Counted from the stretch's first letter, positions 396-10,711 are shown. The stretch: 64,000 nucleotides of DNA from Lewinellaceae bacterium (GCA_020636195.1 JACJYH010000005.1:13435-77434), one strand, 5' to 3'. Translations and numbers: made by a program. The notes: a model not told the origin generated them from the letters alone.

Positions 396-905
396 TTATA
401 AAGCATTGCACCCTCGGCAATATCTAAATCTATACTTTGCATTGTACTCTCTGAAATGCCAAGGTGGACACACATTCTCTTTTCCACACTCCCACAACCC
501 AAGTTTTCTATCTGATGCTCTTTTCATCACTTGTTCCAGCTTTTTATTCCTGTCATAATTGATGTAGTGCCAAGCCCAACCATTTCTGATTAAAAAAGAG
601 TCAAGACTTCTTTTACCAATCTTTATTCTCCCAAGTTCCCTATCATACAAGTCTATTTTGACATATTCATAAGTCACATACTTTCCAAGAATCAGATCCC
701 TAACCTTTGCCTGAGCTTGCAATCCCCAGCTTTGATTGAGTTCTGGAGCATCCACATTAAGCAATCTGACAGTCTTCAAACTTTCATTAACTTTCAACAC
801 ATAAGTATCTCCATCCTTCACTTGCATAACTCTTGCAGATACTTGTGAAATACCGTCAAAAGAGATCATCAGTACCAATAAAAAAGCTACTATTTTGCAT
901 TTCAT
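396..905 (-). CDS. secreted thermonuclease (SNase-fold) family protein
   Basis: Signal-peptide-like MKCKIVAFLLVLMISF, then DGDTYVLKV...VRLLNVDAPE...DRELGR, the pattern of staphylococcal-nuclease homologues. Start taken at the second Met; the ORF-track start is 923. Confidence 0.8.
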   Translation of the reverse strand: MKCKIVAFLLVLMISFDGISQVSARVMQVKDGDTYVLKVNESLKTVRLLNVDAPELNQSWGLQAQAKVRDLILGKYVTYEYVKIDLYDRELGRIKIGKRSLDSFLIRNGWAWHYINYDRNKKLEQVMKRASDRKLGLWECGKENVCPPWHFREYNAKYRFRYCRGCNAL

Positions 906-1062
906 ATGGCAAAAATATAGCACATTTTACTTGTTTTAAAACAGCTACTTCCGATATTTCCGATAAGTCCACATTATGCCATAAAACACACTTTTACCAC
1001 TCATTTATTCTTCGTATCTTTGCCTTATTAAAAGCATATTAAAAGTATAGATAAAGTATCAA

Positions 1063-1863: not shown

Positions 1864-1951
1864 ATACGATAATAATAAGTATAATTGTTAATTTTTTATT
1901 AACTAAGATATTTAATTGTACCTTTGCGGTCTTTATAAGAGTTATAGTATC

Positions 1952-2446
1952 ATGTCAATAATTCAATTAGCTAAATATGTCGTTCTTTATTGTAATTTAA
2001 ATGGGATTGATATATCTCATTTGAAACTACAAAAGTTACTTTATTACATACAAAGTTGGCATTTAGTGTATTTTGAAAAGGAATTACTGTTTAGCGATAC
2101 ACCAGAAGCATGGTTAAACGGTCCTGTTTATACAACTGTATATTCTGATTATTTTCATAAGCAAGGTTATAAAATGAATGATCTTATTGTTTTGGATCAG
2201 GACAATTCAAATCTTGAGAAAGAGTATTCTGAGCTAAGTAACAAATTAGCAGATAAAGCAGCATTAGTTGACAAAGTATTATTAAAATATTCAACATTGA
2301 CTGCAGAAAAGCTAGTTTTATTGACACACTGTGAAATGCCTTGGAGCAAAGCAAGAGAAAAGTGCGAAGACATGACATGTAGAGAGCCAATATCTATTGA
2401 TGACATGTATTCTTATTATTCTAGCTTAATAACTAATAAAGCTTAG
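1952..2446 (+). CDS. Panacea (DUF4065, SocA-like) domain protein, antitoxin-like
   Basis: The N-terminus IIQLAKYVVLYCNLNGIDISHLKLQKLLYYIQSWHLVYFEKELLFSDTPEAWLNGPVY matches the LQKLLYY...W..GPV signature of DUF4065. Confidence 0.75.
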   Translation: MSIIQLAKYVVLYCNLNGIDISHLKLQKLLYYIQSWHLVYFEKELLFSDTPEAWLNGPVYTTVYSDYFHKQGYKMNDLIVLDQDNSNLEKEYSELSNKLADKAALVDKVLLKYSTLTAEKLVLLTHCEMPWSKAREKCEDMTCREPISIDDMYSYYSSLITNKA

Positions 2447-2460
2447 CAAGTTGTTTATTT

Positions 2461-2667
2461 ATGTACGACCAAATAGGTGTTGAAATTTTACAGCAGTTAG
2501 ACGAAGAAAACATCAGTTTGAAATATGATCCCAAAAGAGAAGTTAATATAAAACAACCGCTTCATTGTAAACCGATCTTTGATTATCACTTTCTAAATAT
2601 AGATATTGAACCATCTTATTGTGTTTGTAAATCAGATTTACCAAAATGTTTATTTGCAATACTTTAG
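2461..2667 (+). CDS. hypothetical, possibly the 5' part of a frameshifted gene
   Basis: 68-aa ORF that starts 15 nt after the Panacea gene. It overlaps the next ORF (2606-2953) in a different frame. Confidence 0.3.
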   Translation: MYDQIGVEILQQLDEENISLKYDPKREVNIKQPLHCKPIFDYHFLNIDIEPSYCVCKSDLPKCLFAIL

Positions 2668-2953
2668 AAAGGTAAAAGAAATATCCAACAAGACTCTTAA
2701 TAATTGTATTGAAAATCTCAAACATTTCAAGATTACTAGTCAGCCAAATAAAGAAGAAATTCGTTTATATAAATTATTAGTTCTAAAGAATGAAAACGCA
2801 AAAATTGATCACAATAATATGCCATTGTTTGGTCATTTTGAACTTTGGACATCTGAAGAGTCTTCCCCACGAGTATTTTTTATAGTTGGGAGAATGGGTT
2901 TGTTAAATATACTACTCATAGACTTTAATCATGAAATTCATCGTAGAAAATAA
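2606..2953 (+). CDS. hypothetical, candidate toxin partner (or 3' part of a frameshifted gene)
   Basis: 115-aa ORF that opens directly after an in-frame TAG at 2600-2602. The C-terminal SPRVFFIVGRMGLLNILLIDFNHEIH loosely resembles the beta-strand core of RelE/ParE-like toxins. This is weak. Confidence 0.4.
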   Translation: MNHLIVFVNQIYQNVYLQYFRKVKEISNKTLNNCIENLKHFKITSQPNKEEIRLYKLLVLKNENAKIDHNNMPLFGHFELWTSEESSPRVFFIVGRMGLLNILLIDFNHEIHRRK

Positions 2954-3137
2954 GAATTTTCTCTTGTTTTCTTTTCTTCCACCTACTTTTGTTGCCCAAC
3001 CGTTGCCCAATCGCCTGAATCCCTTTATTTATAAGCATTTCAGGATAATGTATTGGGAAGTAAAGTTAATTTCCTTTAAAGGTAAATGATATTTATTTGA
3101 AGCTAATATATATTTTTGCAAAAGATTGCACATTCAT

Positions 3138-5027
3138 ATGAATCATACATTAAAACGGGTAAAAAAATCAGAGAAGCCGGTAGCAACCAGTAAGCTTCCT
3201 TCCATGAATGTATTGTGGCATATTCTGGGCGTAGTTATAATTATTGCATCTACTTACTTTTTCTATCGTGGTGCTTTGAATAATGCGTTTGTCAATTGGG
3301 ACGACCAAGTCTATGTAGAGGAACAACCTTTGGTATTGGAAAAAGAGTATGCTGCTCTATGGAAGACTCCAGTATCTCTCAATTATCATCCATTGACGAT
3401 GACGTCTTTGGCAGCACAAGTGCCAAAAGATGTCAAGAAATTATCACCGAAGCCATTCATTCATGTCAATATCTGGCTACATATTTTTAATAGCATTTTA
3501 GTTTTCATTTTGATATGGAACATCCATCGAAGAAATTGGTGGGTTGCTATTTTTACTGCATTGATATTTGCGCTGCATCCTACCCATGTGGAGTCTGTAG
3601 TGTGGGTTTCAGAGCGAAAAGATGTACTGTATTCCTTCTTTTTTTTATTGGCGTGTATCAGTTACTGGCAGTACCTGCAAAAGAAAAACATTGGGTGGTT
3701 TGTGTTTGCATTTGTCTTATTTGTATGTAGTGTTTTGTCAAAAGCGGTAGCTGTGACCTTGCCTTTGGTCTTGTTGCTCTTGGATTATTGGCAAAACAGA
3801 TCATTTAAAGATAAGCAATTATGGATTGAAAAAATTCCGTTTTTTGTTGTGTCTTTATTTTTTGGATTAATGGCCATAAGTGTACAAGGAGGAGGTGATT
3901 TTGGTGGACTTTTAACGCTTGCTGGAGAAAAAACCAAAGCATTGGCTGGGATAGAGGTATTCACAATTTGGGAAAGAATCCAATTTGCTTCCTATGGTTT
4001 TATAAATTATATCTTTAAATTTTTTGCTCCCATTCATTTAAGCGCTTTTTATCCATATCCTGAAGGTAACTCCTTGGGAGCGTTTGGTATAGCATATCCA
4101 TTGTTGGTAGTAGTTTTAGGAGGATTAACTGTATGGTCAATGAAACGTACAAAGATTTTTGCCTTTAGCTTAGGATTTTACTTTATAACTATTGCCCTTG
4201 TATTGCAATTTATTTCTGTGGGATTGGCCATTACAGCTGACAGATATACTTACATTCCTTATATCGGATTGGGTTTTTGTGTGATGTATATTTTGGATAC
4301 ATGGTTGGTGCCATTGGCTTCTTACATGAAGTATGCGGTTTCAATTGTTTTGGGTATTGTATTGATTTATTTTGGCCTACAAACACAAAAACAAGCTATG
4401 GTATGGAAGGATAGCGAAACCTTATGGAGCCAAGTTTTGGAAATCTATCCAACGTGTGATCTTGCATTGGGAAATAGAGGAAATTATAGAGGAAAGAATG
4501 GCAATATACAAGGAGCAATGCAGGATTTTGAAGTTGCTATTTCTGATGGATGTGACGAAGGTAATGTATATGAAGGCTTGGGAAATTGTTATGGATCTCT
4601 CGCAATGCAACAACCCTCAAACAAGGATGAATTGGTGCAAAAATCAATAATGATGTATCAAAAGGCTATCGAAATAGACTCTACAAAGGTCAATGTTTAT
4701 ATCAACCTTGGCATCACTCAGGTACAGACTAATTCAAAAGATGCCATAATTACTTTAGAAAAAGCACTTGCCATGGCACCATTTAAGGAAGCTTATATCT
4801 TACCTGCCTATGGCGCTGCTTTGATAAATGTAGGTCAAAATGATAAAGCTATTCAAGTACTTTCACAAACCATCCAAAAACATGGAAGCCGTGTAGATGT
4901 GCTTTATAACAGAGCATTAGCATATACCAATTTGGGTAATATAGCAGCTGCAAAGGCGGACTTAAATGCGGTGCTCGCTATAAATCCTAACCATGAAGGA
5001 GCCAAGGCTAAACTCTCGGAATTGTAA
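3138..5027 (+). CDS. polytopic membrane protein with C-terminal TPR repeats (TMTC / GT39-like glycosyltransferase family)
   Basis: About 10 hydrophobic segments and the FVNWDDQVYV motif near the first loop. The C-terminal 200 aa are TPR-like. Confidence 0.7.
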   Translation: MNHTLKRVKKSEKPVATSKLPSMNVLWHILGVVIIIASTYFFYRGALNNAFVNWDDQVYVEEQPLVLEKEYAALWKTPVSLNYHPLTMTSLAAQVPKDVKKLSPKPFIHVNIWLHIFNSILVFILIWNIHRRNWWVAIFTALIFALHPTHVESVVWVSERKDVLYSFFFLLACISYWQYLQKKNIGWFVFAFVLFVCSVLSKAVAVTLPLVLLLLDYWQNRSFKDKQLWIEKIPFFVVSLFFGLMAISVQGGGDFGGLLTLAGEKTKALAGIEVFTIWERIQFASYGFINYIFKFFAPIHLSAFYPYPEGNSLGAFGIAYPLLVVVLGGLTVWSMKRTKIFAFSLGFYFITIALVLQFISVGLAITADRYTYIPYIGLGFCVMYILDTWLVPLASYMKYAVSIVLGIVLIYFGLQTQKQAMVWKDSETLWSQVLEIYPTCDLALGNRGNYRGKNGNIQGAMQDFEVAISDGCDEGNVYEGLGNCYGSLAMQQPSNKDELVQKSIMMYQKAIEIDSTKVNVYINLGITQVQTNSKDAIITLEKALAMAPFKEAYILPAYGAALINVGQNDKAIQVLSQTIQKHGSRVDVLYNRALAYTNLGNIAAAKADLNAVLAINPNHEGAKAKLSEL

Positions 5028-5177
5028 TGCGCTGACATTGTAATGTTGTTATCTTTCAATGTTATTTTGTAGTCCAACAGTTATACAATATCCAGAACCA
5101 CTATATTTATAGATTTTATGAAGGTAATAGTAAATCGCAACATCTTCAAAACCAATAAGAAATGAAGCCACAATAAA

Positions 5178-5256
5178 TTTAACAACAAATTTATTGTTAA
5201 AAAATTTAACAACATAATTATTGTTATGTATCTTTGCCAATAAAATTATTGTTAAG
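5178..5256. promoter_or_regulatory. three tandem operator-like palindromes TTTAACAA-N8-TTGTTAAA
   Basis: Site 1 at 5178-5201 is perfect 8+8. Site 2 at 5205-5228 is TTTAACAA-N8-TTGTTAtg. Site 3 at 5233-5256 is TTTGCCAA-N8-TTGTTAAg. Centres are 27-28 bp apart, and the last site abuts the GTG start. Confidence 0.5.
5229..5236 (+). promoter_or_regulatory. Bacteroidota-type -7 promoter box
   Basis: TATCTTTG is an exact match to TAnnTTTG. It lies 20 nt upstream of the 5256 start. Confidence 0.4.
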
Positions 5257-6413
5257 TGAAATGGATTCGACCAAATACAATTACAGGTTCTGTTGCTCAA
5301 GGTGCTAAATATTTTAGAAGAAAAGACATAGAAGACAAAATATGGCACGAACTGCAAAAAGGAAATAGTGTACTTTTCCTAGCTCCTAGAAGAGTGGGCA
5401 AATCTTCTATAATATCTTACATGGCCGACAATCCAGCAGATGGATTTTGCTGCAAATATGAAGATATAGAGTCTGACAGTTCTATTCAAGATTTTTATAA
5501 GCGACTGATCCGAATGTCTCTTGACTCACTTACAAAATATGGTAAAGTCAAAAAAGGGATTTCTGGATGGTGGAATAGCTGGACTATAGAATCCATAGGA
5601 AAAGATAATGTGGGAATAGTTAAGGCGGAAGTAGATCATAGGAAGGAATTTAAGAATTTATTAGGTGAGCTAAAAAAGAACGAAGAAAAAGTAGCTTTAT
5701 TTCTGGATGAATTTCCGGATGTGATATTAAAACTTTCAAAGAATAATGAAGCAGAACAGCTATTGGAAGATGTGAGACATCTTTGCCATGATGATCAATT
5801 TAAAGGTACATTTACTTTGGTATTACTTGGTTCAGTTGGACTCGCACATATTGTAAAGCAAGTAACCGGTAGAAGCCACAAAATAAACCAGTTACACAAG
5901 GAACATTTACCATCATTGGAGAGAACTAAAGCTGAAGATTTTCTTGACTTTCTCTTACAAGGTGCCACAATGAAACTAGGTAGTAACGAAAGAGAATATC
6001 TACTCAATAAAGTAGGCAATTATATCCCTTTTTACATTCAGCTGTTGATTGAAGAATGCGATGATAGCTTATACATGGAACAGAGAGAAAAATTAACTTG
6101 TATAGACATCGATAAGGCTTATGCTTCATTATTGAAAAAGAATGAGCATTTCCAAGATTGGGATGAAAGGCTTTCTAAATATTTTTCAGAAAAATACAGA
6201 TTTCTCCACCAAGTATTAACTCAATGTGCACGAAAAGGAAGTATTTCTTTACTCGATATTCTTGACATCGGAGTAAAATATGGGAACGACTTATATTGGA
6301 AAGCCGATATTGATGACATACTAGTCGCAGATGGTTATATTACTGCGGATGAGGATAATTATACGTTTATTTCTCCACTAATGCGGGATTGGTGGAAACT
6401 TCGACACCCATAA
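5256..6413 (+). CDS. P-loop NTPase, archaeal-type ATPase (PF01637/DUF234-like) family
   Basis: Walker A LFLAPRRVGKSS and Walker B VALFLDEFPD. The N-terminal F.RR..E...W..L pattern is typical of the family. GTG start with no in-frame ATG nearby. Confidence 0.8.
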   Translation: MKWIRPNTITGSVAQGAKYFRRKDIEDKIWHELQKGNSVLFLAPRRVGKSSIISYMADNPADGFCCKYEDIESDSSIQDFYKRLIRMSLDSLTKYGKVKKGISGWWNSWTIESIGKDNVGIVKAEVDHRKEFKNLLGELKKNEEKVALFLDEFPDVILKLSKNNEAEQLLEDVRHLCHDDQFKGTFTLVLLGSVGLAHIVKQVTGRSHKINQLHKEHLPSLERTKAEDFLDFLLQGATMKLGSNEREYLLNKVGNYIPFYIQLLIEECDDSLYMEQREKLTCIDIDKAYASLLKKNEHFQDWDERLSKYFSEKYRFLHQVLTQCARKGSISLLDILDIGVKYGNDLYWKADIDDILVADGYITADEDNYTFISPLMRDWWKLRHP

Positions 6414-6424
6414 AAGACAAGATC

Positions 6425-8998
6425 ATGAGACAAGAATATATACAATATCAGAACGCCAATCAAAGCTTTGAAGAAGTAGCCGAAAACTTTGTCGTAAGAC
6501 GAAAGGAATTCGAACGAGTAATGGCCGAAATTAGAAATTATGATGGCTATTCATCATTTCAGCACACAGTATTTGTTGGCAGAAGGGGCAGTGGAAAATC
6601 AACAATACTCAGACGAATTCAAGCTGAACTATCGATGGATAAAGCACTCAATGAAAGGTATGAAGTGGTTAGGCTTGCTGAAGAACAAACATTTATCTAC
6701 AAGCTGTACGACTTATGGGATTATGTGATTAGAGAGATGAATGTATTGGGTTATGCAATACAGATACCGGATTTTAGGGATTATAGGGATGACATGAAAC
6801 AGTTTTCAAAAATACTTCATGAACTCATCACTGACCAACTAAAAAAGAAAAAGAAACAACTCATTCTCCTCTTGGACAATATTGATAGAATCCTGAGTTT
6901 GGGTAATCATCATGAAGAAGCATCTCTATTGAGAGAATTACTTATCAATTTTAAAGAGATAAGAATTATAGGCGGCAGTACAGTGATGTCAGAACATTTT
7001 TGGAAATATGACAAGCCTTTTTATCAATTTTTTTCTATAAAAATGCTTGAGCCTTTAACCAATCAAGAAATAAAAGCACTATTTAATCATTGGAGCGAAA
7101 AAAGAAAACTACCGGAAATTAAGAACATCATGGAGAAGTCTCCGGGAAAGCTCCAGAGCATTAGAATGCTAACCGATGGTATGCCAAGAACGATGTCATT
7201 ATTTGTCGATATTCTACTCAATCAATCAGTAAATAATGGTTATCAGTACCTTCAATTTATTGTAGATAAAGCGACGCCCATTTATCAAGAGAGACTTGCA
7301 TTGATATCTGAAGCGCAAAAAAAAGTATTTTCTGAATTGGCCTTTTTTTGGGATGCCGCAAGTGTGGAAGATTTGATACCTAAATGCAATATGGAGGGGA
7401 AATTGATCTCAGCCTTACTCAAACAATTGACAGATATCAAGTATGTCGAAAAAATAAAAGGAAAAACCAAAAACAACTTATACAGAGTAGAAGAGCGATT
7501 TTTCAACCTATGGTTCAATATGACTCAAGGTGGTTTGCAGCATAGAGCTATAGCAAAAGCTTTGTCAGATTTTTTAGAAAGTTGGTATGATGCAACCGAA
7601 TTAAATAGTTATTGTGCGAATTTTGCGTTGCATATGAGCCATAATAAAGTATCACAAGAACATATCAAGGCCATGTCACATGCATTGATGTCAAGTAAAT
7701 TCATCAAATGGGATATAAAGAGGAATTTTTATAAAAACCTAGAAAAATCTAACACCATAAATAAAGAAGATCTTAACGATCTAAAATCCTACTTCAGTGA
7801 TATTGATGTAGAAATAGATACAGCTTTTGAGCAAGGAGATTATCGCAAAGCTATAGAATTACTCCATTTATCAGATATTGATGAAGGTAAGAGGTATTTT
7901 GGACTTGGACTTGCCTACCATGAGCTTCAGGATTATATCTATGCAGAAAAATATTACCTCAAAGCGATTGAAAAAGGTAATGTGAAGGCGTTGAATAATA
8001 TTGCGAATCTATATGCAGACCAAGGTAAGGTGGAGTATGCAGAAAAATATTACCTCCAAGCGATTAAAAAAGGTTATGTGAAGGCATTGAATAATATTGC
8101 AAATCTATATGTAGGACAAGAAAAGCAAGAGCAATCAGAAGCACTTTACCTGCAATCTATTGAAAGAGGTGATGTAAATGCATTGAATAATCTTGCGAAT
8201 CTATATGCAGACCAAGGTAAGGTGGAGCTAGCAGAAACATATTACCTCAAAGCGATTGAAAAAAGTCATGTGGATGCATTGATTAATCTTGCAATTCTAT
8301 ATCAAGAGCAAGGAAAACATGAGGAGGCAGAAACATATTACCTCCAAGCCATTGATAAAGGTGATGTGGACGCATTGAATAATCTTGCAAATCTATATCA
8401 AGAGCAAGGAAAACAGGACGATGCAGAAGCATATTACCTCCAAGCCATTGATAAAGGTCATGTGGATGCATTGTTCAATCTTGCGAATCTATATCAAGAG
8501 CAAGGAAAACATGAGGAGGCAGAAACATATTACCTTCAAGCCATTGAAAAAGGTTATGTAAATGCATTGAATAATCTTTTACTATTAAAATTTGAAAGTG
8601 GGAAAAAGGCAGAAATTAAAGAACTACTAAATAAATCAATAGATGTAATAAATGATAATTGGGATTATCTAAACGCTGAATTTGCCGCCATCCTATCACT
8701 TTACCTAGGAGATCTAGATCGATTTAATAAATTGTATGCACCATATAAAATCAATGGAACTGCATCTTCACTCATGCTCATTACCTTACTTTATCTAAAA
8801 CAAATACATTTAGTTCATCAGTACTTTGAAAACCATATTCAAGCCAAGGAAGATTTTAAACCCTTGTATTTTGCTGTCCTACATTTATTAGAAAATAAAG
8901 ATCAGGAAATACTCAGAATGCCGCCCGAAATCAATGAAATTGTAATGGATATCGTTAATGATGTCAAATCAAAACAAGCCTTTTATTCGATAAAATAA
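6425..8998 (+). CDS. P-loop NTPase (AAA/ORC/STAND-like) fused to a TPR/Sel1-like repeat array
   Basis: Walker A VGRRGSGKST and Walker B QLILLLDNIDR, followed by 7-8 tandem 32-aa helical repeats (AE.YYLQAI.KG.V.ALNNLANLY.EQGK). ATG at 6425 lies 11 nt after the upstream stop. Confidence 0.8.
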   Translation: MRQEYIQYQNANQSFEEVAENFVVRRKEFERVMAEIRNYDGYSSFQHTVFVGRRGSGKSTILRRIQAELSMDKALNERYEVVRLAEEQTFIYKLYDLWDYVIREMNVLGYAIQIPDFRDYRDDMKQFSKILHELITDQLKKKKKQLILLLDNIDRILSLGNHHEEASLLRELLINFKEIRIIGGSTVMSEHFWKYDKPFYQFFSIKMLEPLTNQEIKALFNHWSEKRKLPEIKNIMEKSPGKLQSIRMLTDGMPRTMSLFVDILLNQSVNNGYQYLQFIVDKATPIYQERLALISEAQKKVFSELAFFWDAASVEDLIPKCNMEGKLISALLKQLTDIKYVEKIKGKTKNNLYRVEERFFNLWFNMTQGGLQHRAIAKALSDFLESWYDATELNSYCANFALHMSHNKVSQEHIKAMSHALMSSKFIKWDIKRNFYKNLEKSNTINKEDLNDLKSYFSDIDVEIDTAFEQGDYRKAIELLHLSDIDEGKRYFGLGLAYHELQDYIYAEKYYLKAIEKGNVKALNNIANLYADQGKVEYAEKYYLQAIKKGYVKALNNIANLYVGQEKQEQSEALYLQSIERGDVNALNNLANLYADQGKVELAETYYLKAIEKSHVDALINLAILYQEQGKHEEAETYYLQAIDKGDVDALNNLANLYQEQGKQDDAEAYYLQAIDKGHVDALFNLANLYQEQGKHEEAETYYLQAIEKGYVNALNNLLLLKFESGKKAEIKELLNKSIDVINDNWDYLNAEFAAILSLYLGDLDRFNKLYAPYKINGTASSLMLITLLYLKQIHLVHQYFENHIQAKEDFKPLYFAVLHLLENKDQEILRMPPEINEIVMDIVNDVKSKQAFYSIK
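7943..8615 (+). repeat. intragenic tandem array of about seven 96-bp units
   Basis: A 30-nt string, gaaaacatgaggaggcagaaacatattacc, recurs exactly at 8311 and 8503 (192 nt = 2 units). The peptide repeats are near-identical. Confidence 0.85.
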
Positions 8999-9109
8999 AT
9001 GACATAATTGTAATATTCATAATTGATGGTCATTTCACTCAATCCAACATAGGTATTATCTTATTGTGGAATTCAATATTAGATCTGACACAATCCATAA
9101 CTATCATAC

Positions 9110-10711
9110 TTACAAATTCACAACTTTATCCTTTGGATATTTTACCTTGTAACTGATACGGTATTTTCGAGATTGATTGGCTTCGATATCTTGTATCCAA
9201 GTCAATATACCTGTTTCTGAATTGATAGTGGCCTTGTCAGACTCCAAGAGTTCAACCGTGATCTCCGAGTTGTCACTGATAGGAATCTGATCTTTTAATG
9301 TCAAGCTAATTTTCTCAGTTTTATTGTTTTTTACAGTAATGACATACGTCAGTACTTGTACTTTATTGGAAGAGAAAATCTTAGTGCTTGATTGATCTGT
9401 CATTTTTTCTTTTTTAACGACTACTTTCGGATCACGACCCATGTTGATGTTGAGTGTATCATTTGCTTGGTAAGGATTCAGAAACGTCTTACCGGTATAT
9501 ACATTATCAAAAATAATATTTGCCTCACCGGGCAATAAATTATATTCGGCATAGTCACCTATTTCTGCAAGAAGGAATACATCCTTTTGAATTTTTGGAA
9601 CAGTATAATGCTTGAAAGTGGCAGGAATTTTAATTTCTTTGATAGCCAATGTATGCCCTTGTCCATCTGAAACAATATCATAAGGCACATCAAAATCAAA
9701 ACCAATGTTGAGTTGATTGTCATTGCTGGTTATCAGATCGTCTTGGATCCCAACGCCATCTTGAGCAACCATTTCCTCCTTCATTTTTGCTACTGAAGGT
9801 ATGGTATTCTGTTGGTAAGCCCTCTGGTAGTTGGCGTAAAATTGTTGCATAAAATTGAGATGCCAAGCTCTCAAAATGGGTGTTTCATTGCTTTGGTTGG
9901 GAATGCCACTAGACAGTGACAGTTTGATGTTTTTCCAATCCAATCCCGAATTTTGACTGACATTGGCTTTATAGACCAAAGTGATAGGTTGTAAAATACT
10001 TTCAGCTCTGATATCGTACATTGGGTTCCAAGTGGCATTGGGACACAAATACTTGACCGCTATATTTGATAGAGATTTTGATCCTTTATTATATAATTGC
10101 AATACGATTTCACCTTGACCTGAAACTGAGTTTTGATTTTTTAAATTTGTAAATCTTTTTTCTAAATTTGCCAGTTTGGTATTCAATTTTGACATCTTTC
10201 CTTCATAGGTTATCATATTATTTTCAATTTCAAGGCGCTTGGATTTATTATAATCTATGAGCTTTATCAATTCTGCGGTTTGGAGGCCAGATTCTGTTCC
10301 TAAAACTGCCGTGTTTTGATCTAATATTTTAAGGATTTTGCCATCTGCATTCATAGATTGTTGGATCAACCTTAGCTCATTATTGATAAGCTGAATGCTG
10401 TCTTTTAAATTCAACATTTCGACACTTAAATTTTCATCATTTGGTAATGAATTCAACCTATAACTAGTGGATAGGATATTAATATTTTTAGGAACAGATA
10501 TCTGCATGCTAGACTCAAAAATGGCATTTGAGATGTTTTTTATTACACATTCAGAACTGCCTTCAGGTATCATTACTTGTGCGGAATGGCTCAATTCTAC
10601 TCCTGAGAAATACACAGTTGCACTTTCTAATTTTGATGTAGTGACGATGGGTTTTTGAGCAAAAGAAATATTAAAACTCACAATGAGTACAATAAAAATG
10701 CTTGGTTTCAT
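9110..10711 (-). CDS. DUF4139 (MuiA-like) domain protein, secreted
   Basis: Signal peptide, an N-terminal beta region, a central coiled coil and a large C-terminal beta domain. This architecture is recalled for DUF4140/DUF4139 proteins. Confidence 0.6.
   Translation of the reverse strand: MKPSIFIVLIVSFNISFAQKPIVTTSKLESATVYFSGVELSHSAQVMIPEGSSECVIKNISNAIFESSMQISVPKNINILSTSYRLNSLPNDENLSVEMLNLKDSIQLINNELRLIQQSMNADGKILKILDQNTAVLGTESGLQTAELIKLIDYNKSKRLEIENNMITYEGKMSKLNTKLANLEKRFTNLKNQNSVSGQGEIVLQLYNKGSKSLSNIAVKYLCPNATWNPMYDIRAESILQPITLVYKANVSQNSGLDWKNIKLSLSSGIPNQSNETPILRAWHLNFMQQFYANYQRAYQQNTIPSVAKMKEEMVAQDGVGIQDDLITSNDNQLNIGFDFDVPYDIVSDGQGHTLAIKEIKIPATFKHYTVPKIQKDVFLLAEIGDYAEYNLLPGEANIIFDNVYTGKTFLNPYQANDTLNINMGRDPKVVVKKEKMTDQSSTKIFSSNKVQVLTYVITVKNNKTEKISLTLKDQIPISDNSEITVELLESDKATINSETGILTWIQDIEANQSRKYRISYKVKYPKDKVVNL

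Follow-up and report, generated by a model that had tools for sequence, protein, structure and literature searches.

STAND NTPases, as Leipe et al. are said to have defined them in 2004, are built from a P-loop NTPase, a helical domain and a winged helix, together called the NOD module. In Avs5, an nSTAND3 NTPase is joined to TPR/Sel1 sensors and a Sir2 effector, and Kaur et al. (2021, PMC8195603) predicted a counter-invader role for STAND pairs encoded by two genes. A second family, COG1672, is typified by a C-terminal DUF234 PD-(D/E)XK nuclease domain (PMC3424549). Here we describe a cassette of two genes, both encoding P-loop ATPases, at positions 5256–8998 of a 64,000-nucleotide stretch of DNA from a Lewinellaceae bacterium (GCA_020636195.1 JACJYH010000005.1:13435-77434; this whole stretch is called the window). 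The cassette, all on the plus strand and preceded by three predicted operators, is real, accessory and horizontally mobile; its family is undescribed in the literature searched and in PADLOC or NCBIfam models, and is uncharacterised. Its most likely function, which we put forward tentatively, is that of a sensor paired with an executor in NLR-like fashion, acting in conflicts with phages or plasmids.

Gene 1 (5256–6413) starts with GTG and encodes an AAA+ ATPase of the archaeal ATPase_2 or ORC/Cdc6-like type. A sequence-only reading of this DNA had given it 385 amino acids, a Walker A motif APRRVGKSS and a Walker B motif LFLDEFPD; all three were borne out, the motifs lying at 5382–5408 and 5697–5720. 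The Pfam family PF01637 (ATPase_2) scored 25.5 bits against a gathering cut-off of 33.2 and AAA-ATPase_like was likewise sub-threshold; a precomputed PF01637 match is present in many gene 1 homologues. Sequence searches of the PDB with the single proteins gave no useful matches, and a PDB profile search with gene 1 returned 2fna at E 0.0011. The AlphaFold 2 (AF2) model of gene 1 (predicted local distance difference test, pLDDT, 89; predicted template modelling score, pTM, 0.85) consists of an AAA+ core, a lid and a C-terminal winged helix (about residues 310–385; 6183–6410). Foldseek placed 2qen first (E 2.7e-10, TM 0.64) and 2fna second (E 9e-10, TM 0.58; both TM scores query-normalised over the full length), followed by the archaeal Orc1/Cdc6 structures 1w5t, 1fnn, 2qby and 2v1u (E 1e-8 to 7e-7). 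Gene 1 resembles the ATPase_2/COG1672 'DEXX-box' proteins (PF01637; 2qen, 2fna) in fold, Walker A, DE-type Walker B and C-terminal winged helix, but it scores below the PF01637 gathering threshold and lacks DUF234: residues 299–385 gave no Pfam match, and their AF2 topology is that of a winged helix. Nor are an obligate TPR-STAND partner and operators described for that family.

Gene 2 (6425–8998) encodes a STAND-like NTPase with a repeat array, a putative sensor. A mechanical open reading frame (ORF) call begins at TTG 6389 and gives 869 amino acids, but the ATG at 6425 is preferred because homologue alignments support it; the start 11 nt past the gene 1 stop and the length of about 857 residues given at first reading therefore hold, as do the Walker A motif GRRGSGKST (6578–6604) and the Walker B motif LILLLDNIDR (6860–6889). 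In the AF2 model (pLDDT 85), a P-loop core (strands and helices at residues 47–207) is followed by a helical region, a winged helix (about residues 296–367), a helical linker, the TPR array and a helical C-terminal domain. By AF2 secondary structure the winged-helix domain spans residues 292–370 (7298–7534) and is a candidate operator-binding domain. The C-terminal domain (residues 731–857; 8615–8995) is conserved and all-helical, and matched no Pfam family.

The TPR/Sel1-like array (residues 487–730; 7883–8614) includes seven near-identical 32-residue units, perfectly in register, that score 125 bits with Pfam TPR_1. The period and type of repeat first proposed were correct, and the proposed count of seven or eight resolves to seven. 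At the DNA level the array is a tandem repeat of a 96-nt unit (7941–8578; 6.6 copies, 82% matches). The 32-residue period is family-wide, and gene 2 homologues measure approximately 664, 697, 727, 762, 794, 823 and 857 amino acids; TPR copy number is the fast-changing part of gene 2, stepping in 32-residue quanta. Four public contigs from assemblies of this same locus, with an identical gene 1 (L093–L096 in our numbering of loci), all end inside gene 2, at about residue 483–535, which is where the near-identical 96-nt array starts; the repeats therefore break short-read assemblies.

The STAND/NLR-like architecture claimed for gene 2 by the sequence-only reading stood in part. The P-loop, helical and winged-helix order of STAND proteins is present in the AF2 model, and Foldseek, TPR proteins aside, returned the STAND-TPR protein 6mfv and Apaf-1; a C-terminal, superstructure-forming repeat sensor is likewise present in the seven 32-residue units. 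No curated STAND family was matched, and of the NTPase profiles the generic AAA_22 alone passed (33 bits), together with strong TPR families. Below their cut-offs were nSTAND5 (27.7 versus 34 bits), NACHT (20.0 versus 26.7), nSTAND1 (19.8 versus 27.1), ORC-CDC6-like (26.2 versus 27) and AAA_16. The profile and structure searches proposed by that reading thus delivered AAA_22, TPR, 6mfv and Apaf-1, and left PF01637, AAA_16, NACHT and nSTAND sub-threshold; no effector was recognised.

Profile-profile alignment of the two ATPase cores with hhalign gave 94.5% probability (E 8e-8), and we conclude that gene 1 and gene 2 are distant paralogues sharing an ORC/Cdc6-like layout of AAA+ core, lid and winged helix. 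Their catalytic motifs are firmly complementary. In gene 1, the Walker A lysine K49 and the Walker B pair D151–E152 are invariant (78/78 sequences). The equivalent gene 2 pair is D151–N152 in 73 of 74 sequences, and the protein therefore lacks the catalytic glutamate. By analogy with Walker B E-to-Q mutants of AAA+ proteins, this suggests that gene 2 may use nucleotide binding as a switch and that hydrolysis may fall to gene 1.

A word-indexed homology search recovered 95 relatives of gene 1 and more than 375 relatives of the N-terminal half of gene 2, largely on shared contigs, and a profile search of 1.84 billion cluster representatives yielded 806 gene-1-family clusters at E ≤ 1e-30. Our locus set comprises 80 loci from reference genomes (labelled L001 and so on) plus additional context look-ups. 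In every locus with room for it (approximately 85 loci), a gene 2 homologue lies 8–234 nt downstream of gene 1; the exceptions to pairing are two loci, both with a truncated gene 1. The pair is obligate. When flanking ORFs were clustered all against all in search of a third conserved gene, the next cluster was found in at most 5 of about 80 loci.

The pair is spread over at least seven phyla, plasmids included. Its hosts belong to many Bacteroidota orders, Balneolales, Ignavibacteriota, Chlorobi (Chlorobiaceae), Desulfobacterota (Desulfomonilia, Syntrophales) and Campylobacterota (Sulfurovum), and plasmid-borne copies come from Clostridium tagluense, C. estertheticum and Moraxella osloensis. 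Plasmids of Segatella copri and Methylomonas carry gene 1 relatives that are more distant, the Segatella partner being a shorter, non-TPR ATPase. The flanks lack synteny: even a homologue with 79% identity is bordered by RadC, Pirin and cellulase genes, whereas the cassette of the window has as immediate neighbours a gene for a PMT_2-TPR membrane protein resembling glycosyltransferases and a DUF4139/DUF4140 gene. Obligate pairing, non-syntenic flanks, the span of phyla and plasmid carriage together uphold the view that this is a self-contained accessory module of two genes. Several copies have a decayed look: L022, L079 and L081 have an interrupted or truncated gene 1 (the operators of L079 are intact), and the gene 2 match of L015 is cut at residue 290. 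Such decay fits an accessory module prone to occasional loss.

The most informative feature of the cassette, conserved with it across phyla, is its operators. The operator-covered promoter noted at first reading was confirmed as three 20-bp palindromes, the predicted operators, with the consensus TGACAAT-N6-ATTGTCA and a start-to-start spacing of 27–28 bp. Operator 1, TAACAACAAATTTATTGTTA (5180–5199), lies upstream of the promoter core and has an equivalent in most related loci. Operator 2, TAACAACATAATTATTGTTA (5207–5226), occupies the spacer from the -33 position to the -7 box of a Bacteroidota-type promoter, and in homologous loci its copy opens with the -33 TTG (TTTGACAAT or CTTGACAAT). 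The predicted -7 box, TATCTTTG (5229–5236), matches TAnnTTTG, the -7 promoter motif of Bacteroidota known from Bacteroides promoters, and it overlaps the beginning of operator 3, TGCCAATAAAATTATTGTTA (5235–5254), by its final two bases. Operator 3 covers the predicted transcription start and the short leader, leaving a single nucleotide before the GTG; its position is identical in L001, L003 and L007. In 25 loci TAnnTTTG begins 6 nt ahead of the last operator. Neighbouring palindromes also form everted repeats, so that half-site orientation alternates every 13–15 bp.

The pattern TRNCAA-N8-TTGNYA has exactly these three matches in the window, where 0.73 would be expected by chance. Strict operator matches number 136 in 8.7 kb upstream of gene 1 versus 19 in 1.12 Mb of flanks, an enrichment of approximately 900-fold. 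At least two sites are present in 53 of 77 non-redundant loci, with the 27–28 bp spacing kept in 75 of 83 intervals, and the array keeps its place in related loci that share only 29–65% protein identity and have unrelated flanks. It is also found on the Clostridium and Moraxella plasmids, overlapping a sigma-70 -35/-10 promoter; on a Clostridium plasmid an operator spans TTGACA-17-TAATAT. Because the operators overlap both Bacteroidota -33/-7 and sigma-70 -35/-10 promoters, their occupancy should block RNA polymerase at either type. A scan of 4900–9300 for intrinsic terminators found none.

The two half-sites of an operator co-vary: GACTATA..TATAGTC in L020 and the Moraxella plasmid, GCCAAT..ATTGGC in L050, L053 and L054, and GACAAAA..TTTTGTC in loci outside Bacteroidota. 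The first of these variants, TGACTATA-N4-TATAGTCA, occurs upstream of gene 1 in a Bacteroidota metagenome-assembled genome (L020; at least four copies with 28-bp spacing) and at 7905–7990 of the Moraxella plasmid (L092), two loci with distantly related proteins. Two Saprospiraceae genomes each carry two diverged cassettes (L011 and L034 in JAWKLK01; L012 and L044 in JADKBV01), which are about 61–65% and 37–39% identical to the gene 1 of the window and have TGACAAT-type versus ACAACGA-type operators. The differing operators suggest paralogous modules insulated from each other.

The intergenic space, 135 nt in L009 for instance, is too small to hide a repressor gene. Since the array accompanies the cassette from phylum to phylum and a third gene would not fit, the predicted operator binder, an autorepressor, must be the protein of gene 1 or gene 2. 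Autoregulation of the cassette through its co-travelling operator array is, on these sequence grounds, a solid prediction. The gene 2 winged helix is the better candidate for the binder because it has a recognition helix (GK-x-(I/V)SA-x-L), a basic wing (K-N-x-L-Y-R) and a mean net charge of +4.0, versus -2.1 for the acidic gene 1 domain, in which the helix corresponding to the recognition helix is itself acidic (KADIDDIL). Residues K326, S329, K349, Y353, R354 and R358 are kept in gene 2 homologues.

A protein of this kind recalls the MalT/LAL/AfsR-type regulators, which undergo ligand-gated, ATP-dependent oligomerisation. Gene 2 could be a non-immune, MalT/AfsR-like STAND transcription factor whose TPR array senses an endogenous ligand and whose winged helix binds DNA, controlling its own operon and unlinked targets, with gene 1 as co-regulator or remodeller. 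We regard this as rather unlikely. Gene 2 shares with such regulators (e.g., PH0952, 6mfv) a STAND NTPase, a TPR-like sensor and putative DNA binding; the full-length structure closest to it, 6mfv, is that of a STAND protein of the MalT-like kind, operator-based transcriptional control is clear, and chromosomal flanks are housekeeping genes without defence enrichment. But the candidate DNA binder is an internal winged helix instead of a LuxR or SARP domain at a terminus, the partnership with a second ATPase is obligatory, and the sole detectable target is the cassette's own promoter: no further operator copy occurs outside cassette promoters in the window or in 1.1 Mb of flanks, and there is no conserved target operon nearby. 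The remaining pattern matches in the 1.12 Mb of flanks are either wrongly assigned operators of the cassette or GC-rich sequences inside ORFs that match by chance, and other regulon targets there were accordingly ruled out. A sporadic, cross-phylum and plasmid-borne distribution, non-syntenic flanks among close relatives and rapid change in TPR copy number also speak against such a regulator.

Some copies, that of the window with its Panacea antitoxin-domain gene 2.8 kb upstream among them, have surroundings of a mobile or defence-like kind. One lies in an integrative element alongside genes for integrase, Mu-transposase-C, HTH_17, Phage_CRI and HTH_3+Fic. The Moraxella plasmid copy stands beside QatC/QatD of a Qat system, a kinase, insertion sequence (IS) elements, a dUTPase and an N6-methylase; the C. 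estertheticum plasmid copy beside NUDIX, DUF3800, GIY-YIG and integrase genes; and the region of the Segatella replicon copy holds DUF262, WYL and IS genes. No terminal or direct repeats of at least 10 nt flank the cassette, and no relative carried by phages was found in INPHARED, IMG/VR or PHROGs. For an empty-site comparison, metagenome relatives of the upstream PMT_2 neighbour reached 31% identity at best. The sequence-only reading had taken AT-richness as a sign of accessory origin, which did not survive comparison: the GC content (fraction of G and C) of the module is 0.345 versus 0.371 ± 0.021 for equal-sized segments of the window, placing it at the 11th percentile, and a foreign origin inferred from GC anomaly was rejected.

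These settings bear on whether the cassette maintains a mobile element, either as a partition-like system, in which the array is a centromere-like site that an adaptor binds and an ATPase moves or anchors, or as an addiction or abortive module. Such a role is, in our estimate, improbable. Par loci are autoregulated operons of an ATPase and a DNA binder, with tandem repeats overlapping the promoter upstream. The cassette has this classic layout, its three palindromes covering a -33/-7 promoter (a trait common to many autoregulated operons), and it is found on plasmids and, in the integrative element, beside the Phage_CRI replication gene. But neither ATPase is of the ParA, ParM or TubZ type, both proteins being AAA+/STAND-like; most copies are single chromosomal insertions among housekeeping genes without other mobile-element genes; a TPR sensor array has no role in partition; and no toxin-like domain is present.

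An ORC/Cdc6-like initiator pair, with the palindromes as origin-recognition boxes of a cryptic or defunct replicon, is more improbable still, to the point that we give it little credence. Archaeal origins lie directly upstream of orc1/cdc6 genes and contain repeated recognition boxes, and the placement of the array resembles this. Both proteins have the AAA+ core, lid and winged helix of archaeal Orc1/Cdc6 and, like those heteromeric initiators, come as a pair of paralogues, and the Pfam ORC-CDC6-like score of gene 2 was 26.2 bits against a cut-off of 27. The similarity is at the fold level only, however: one partner carries TPRs, the sites overlap a promoter, and no locus shows a replicon context. 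Genes for a helicase, a primase or another replicon function are lacking, as is an AT-rich unwinding element other than the operators; the GC-skew profile does not shift at the cassette, copies occupy ordinary chromosomal positions, and the plasmids that carry the pair have their own annotated replication initiation proteins.

We therefore return to an NLR-like sensor paired with an executor, to which we give somewhat less than an even chance. Support for it comes from obligate pairing, the lack of a conserved third gene, co-travelling operators, the folds of the two proteins, their paralogy, the D-E/D-N asymmetry, accessory behaviour, a fusion to PtuA and the earlier prediction made for two-gene STAND pairs. 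The fusion is found in P0354, a distant gene-1-family member joined to a Septu PtuA-type ABC ATPase (PADLOC PtuA E 3e-66); in another distant member, P0320, a ParA/MinD-like P-loop domain precedes the gene-1-like ATPase. These fusions link the wider gene 1 family to defence-type ATPases. At rest, dimers would sit on the palindromes by means of a winged helix, the gene 2 domain being the likeliest, and would occlude the -33/-7 promoter and the transcription start, keeping both proteins scarce. The TPR array of gene 2 would bind a ligand, either a protein or a peptide, whose most plausible source is an invading phage or plasmid; thereupon the hydrolysis-poor gene 2 NTPase may become ATP-bound, oligomerise and recruit gene 1. 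Activation would relieve autorepression, a positive feedback, and build a hetero-oligomeric AAA+ complex in which gene 1 would provide the ATP-driven output, probably in an ORC/Cdc6-like manner on DNA or as a growth-arresting ATPase.

The cassette shares with Avs1-5, bNACHT and the two-gene nSTAND systems (Kaur et al., 2021, PMC8195603) the order of NTPase, helical domain, winged helix and TPR, variable repeats and sporadic transfer. It differs from these systems in having a D-N Walker B, a constant short ORC/Cdc6-like AAA+ partner and a conserved triple-operator promoter, in lacking a fused or adjacent effector, and in giving no PADLOC Avs or NLR match. That no effector would be visible had been said at first reading, and Pfam, PADLOC, NCBIfam, PHROGs and Foldseek on the AF2 models indeed returned only ATPase, winged-helix and TPR matches for either protein. 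The claim that no named defence system corresponds to the pair also held, PADLOC and NCBIfam giving no meaningful match.

Several observations weigh against the sensor and executor reading. No effector domain was found in either protein, in the at least 375 gene 2 homologues or in conserved neighbours; because it is missing from several hundred homologues, the analogy with Avs and bNACHT is incomplete. PADLOC and NCBIfam defence models gave matches at the chance level of P-loops and TPRs only (PDC-S01, E 0.0025; mad8, 9e-5; DS41_1, 14 bits versus a cut-off of 370), gene 2 remains below the curated cut-offs of all STAND Pfam families, and searches of the literature on nSTAND5, PF01637 and defence, DUF234/ATPase_2 and COG1672 found nothing describing this pair. 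For the assignment of the binder, comparison of specificity residues between the ACTATA-class loci L020 and Moraxella L092 and ACAAT-class loci revealed no convincing shared substitution in either winged helix; only the net-charge difference favours gene 2.

Genomic setting also counts on that side. Most chromosomal copies are lone insertions between housekeeping genes, for example thyA/purA, gyrB, dnaE or pgk. A search for defence islands around chromosomal loci, proposed by the sequence-only reading, was negative: among the two nearest ORFs on each side in 35 loci, 43 PADLOC families were counted in 139 proteins versus 38 in 109 control ORFs at least five genes from the pair in the same loci, a crude comparison that rests on family counts. 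There was no local excess, and defence-island enrichment was rejected. The same reading had named conservation in a syntenic housekeeping context, apart from defence regions, as a finding that would tell against a conflict role. Neighbours are mostly housekeeping genes and defence enrichment is missing, but synteny is absent, the flanks varying even at 79% identity.

The missing effector may instead be taken at face value. An effector-less immune module, in which gene 2 would be both invader sensor and operator-bound autorepressor and would recruit gene 1 into a hetero-oligomer acting directly on DNA, is a possibility that we hold to be doubtful. Such a complex could, for example, block replication or transcription of the invader without any nuclease, NADase or protease.

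Upstream of the cassette, the adjacent gene (3126–5027, plus strand) encodes a 633-residue polytopic membrane protein with a weak PMT_2 glycosyltransferase match, whose own C-terminal TPRs are unrelated to the gene 2 array. Further upstream, 2.8 kb from the cassette, is a SocA/Panacea antitoxin-domain gene (1916–2446, plus strand; Pfam E 5e-15), followed by small unannotated ORFs (2461–2667 and 2606–2953, plus strand) without Pfam or PHROG match; together they may be a Panacea-type toxin-antitoxin pair. An SNase homologue (396–923, minus strand; Pfam E 4e-18) with a signal-peptide-like N terminus marks the edge of this accessory-looking stretch. The remnant of a mobile element previously placed here was not recovered: the region consists of the SocA/Panacea gene, the small ORFs and the SNase gene, and no integrase or transposase was found upstream of the cassette.

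If the cassette is a conflict system, it would represent an NLR-like sensor acting without a conventional enzymatic effector, through an ORC/Cdc6-like AAA+ partner, and would contribute a family that exceeds 800 clusters at 50% identity, mainly from Bacteroidota, a phylum in which defence has been little explored. Independently of what it does, the cassette is an unusually clean case in nature of a portable, self-insulated regulatory unit, in which an operator array and its predicted binder have moved jointly among seven phyla and between the Bacteroidota -33/-7 and sigma-70 -35/-10 types of promoter. Because the array moves with the cassette and its half-sites co-vary, operator-protein specificity is directly testable, and the cassette operators are potentially useful as an orthogonal repressor/operator set.

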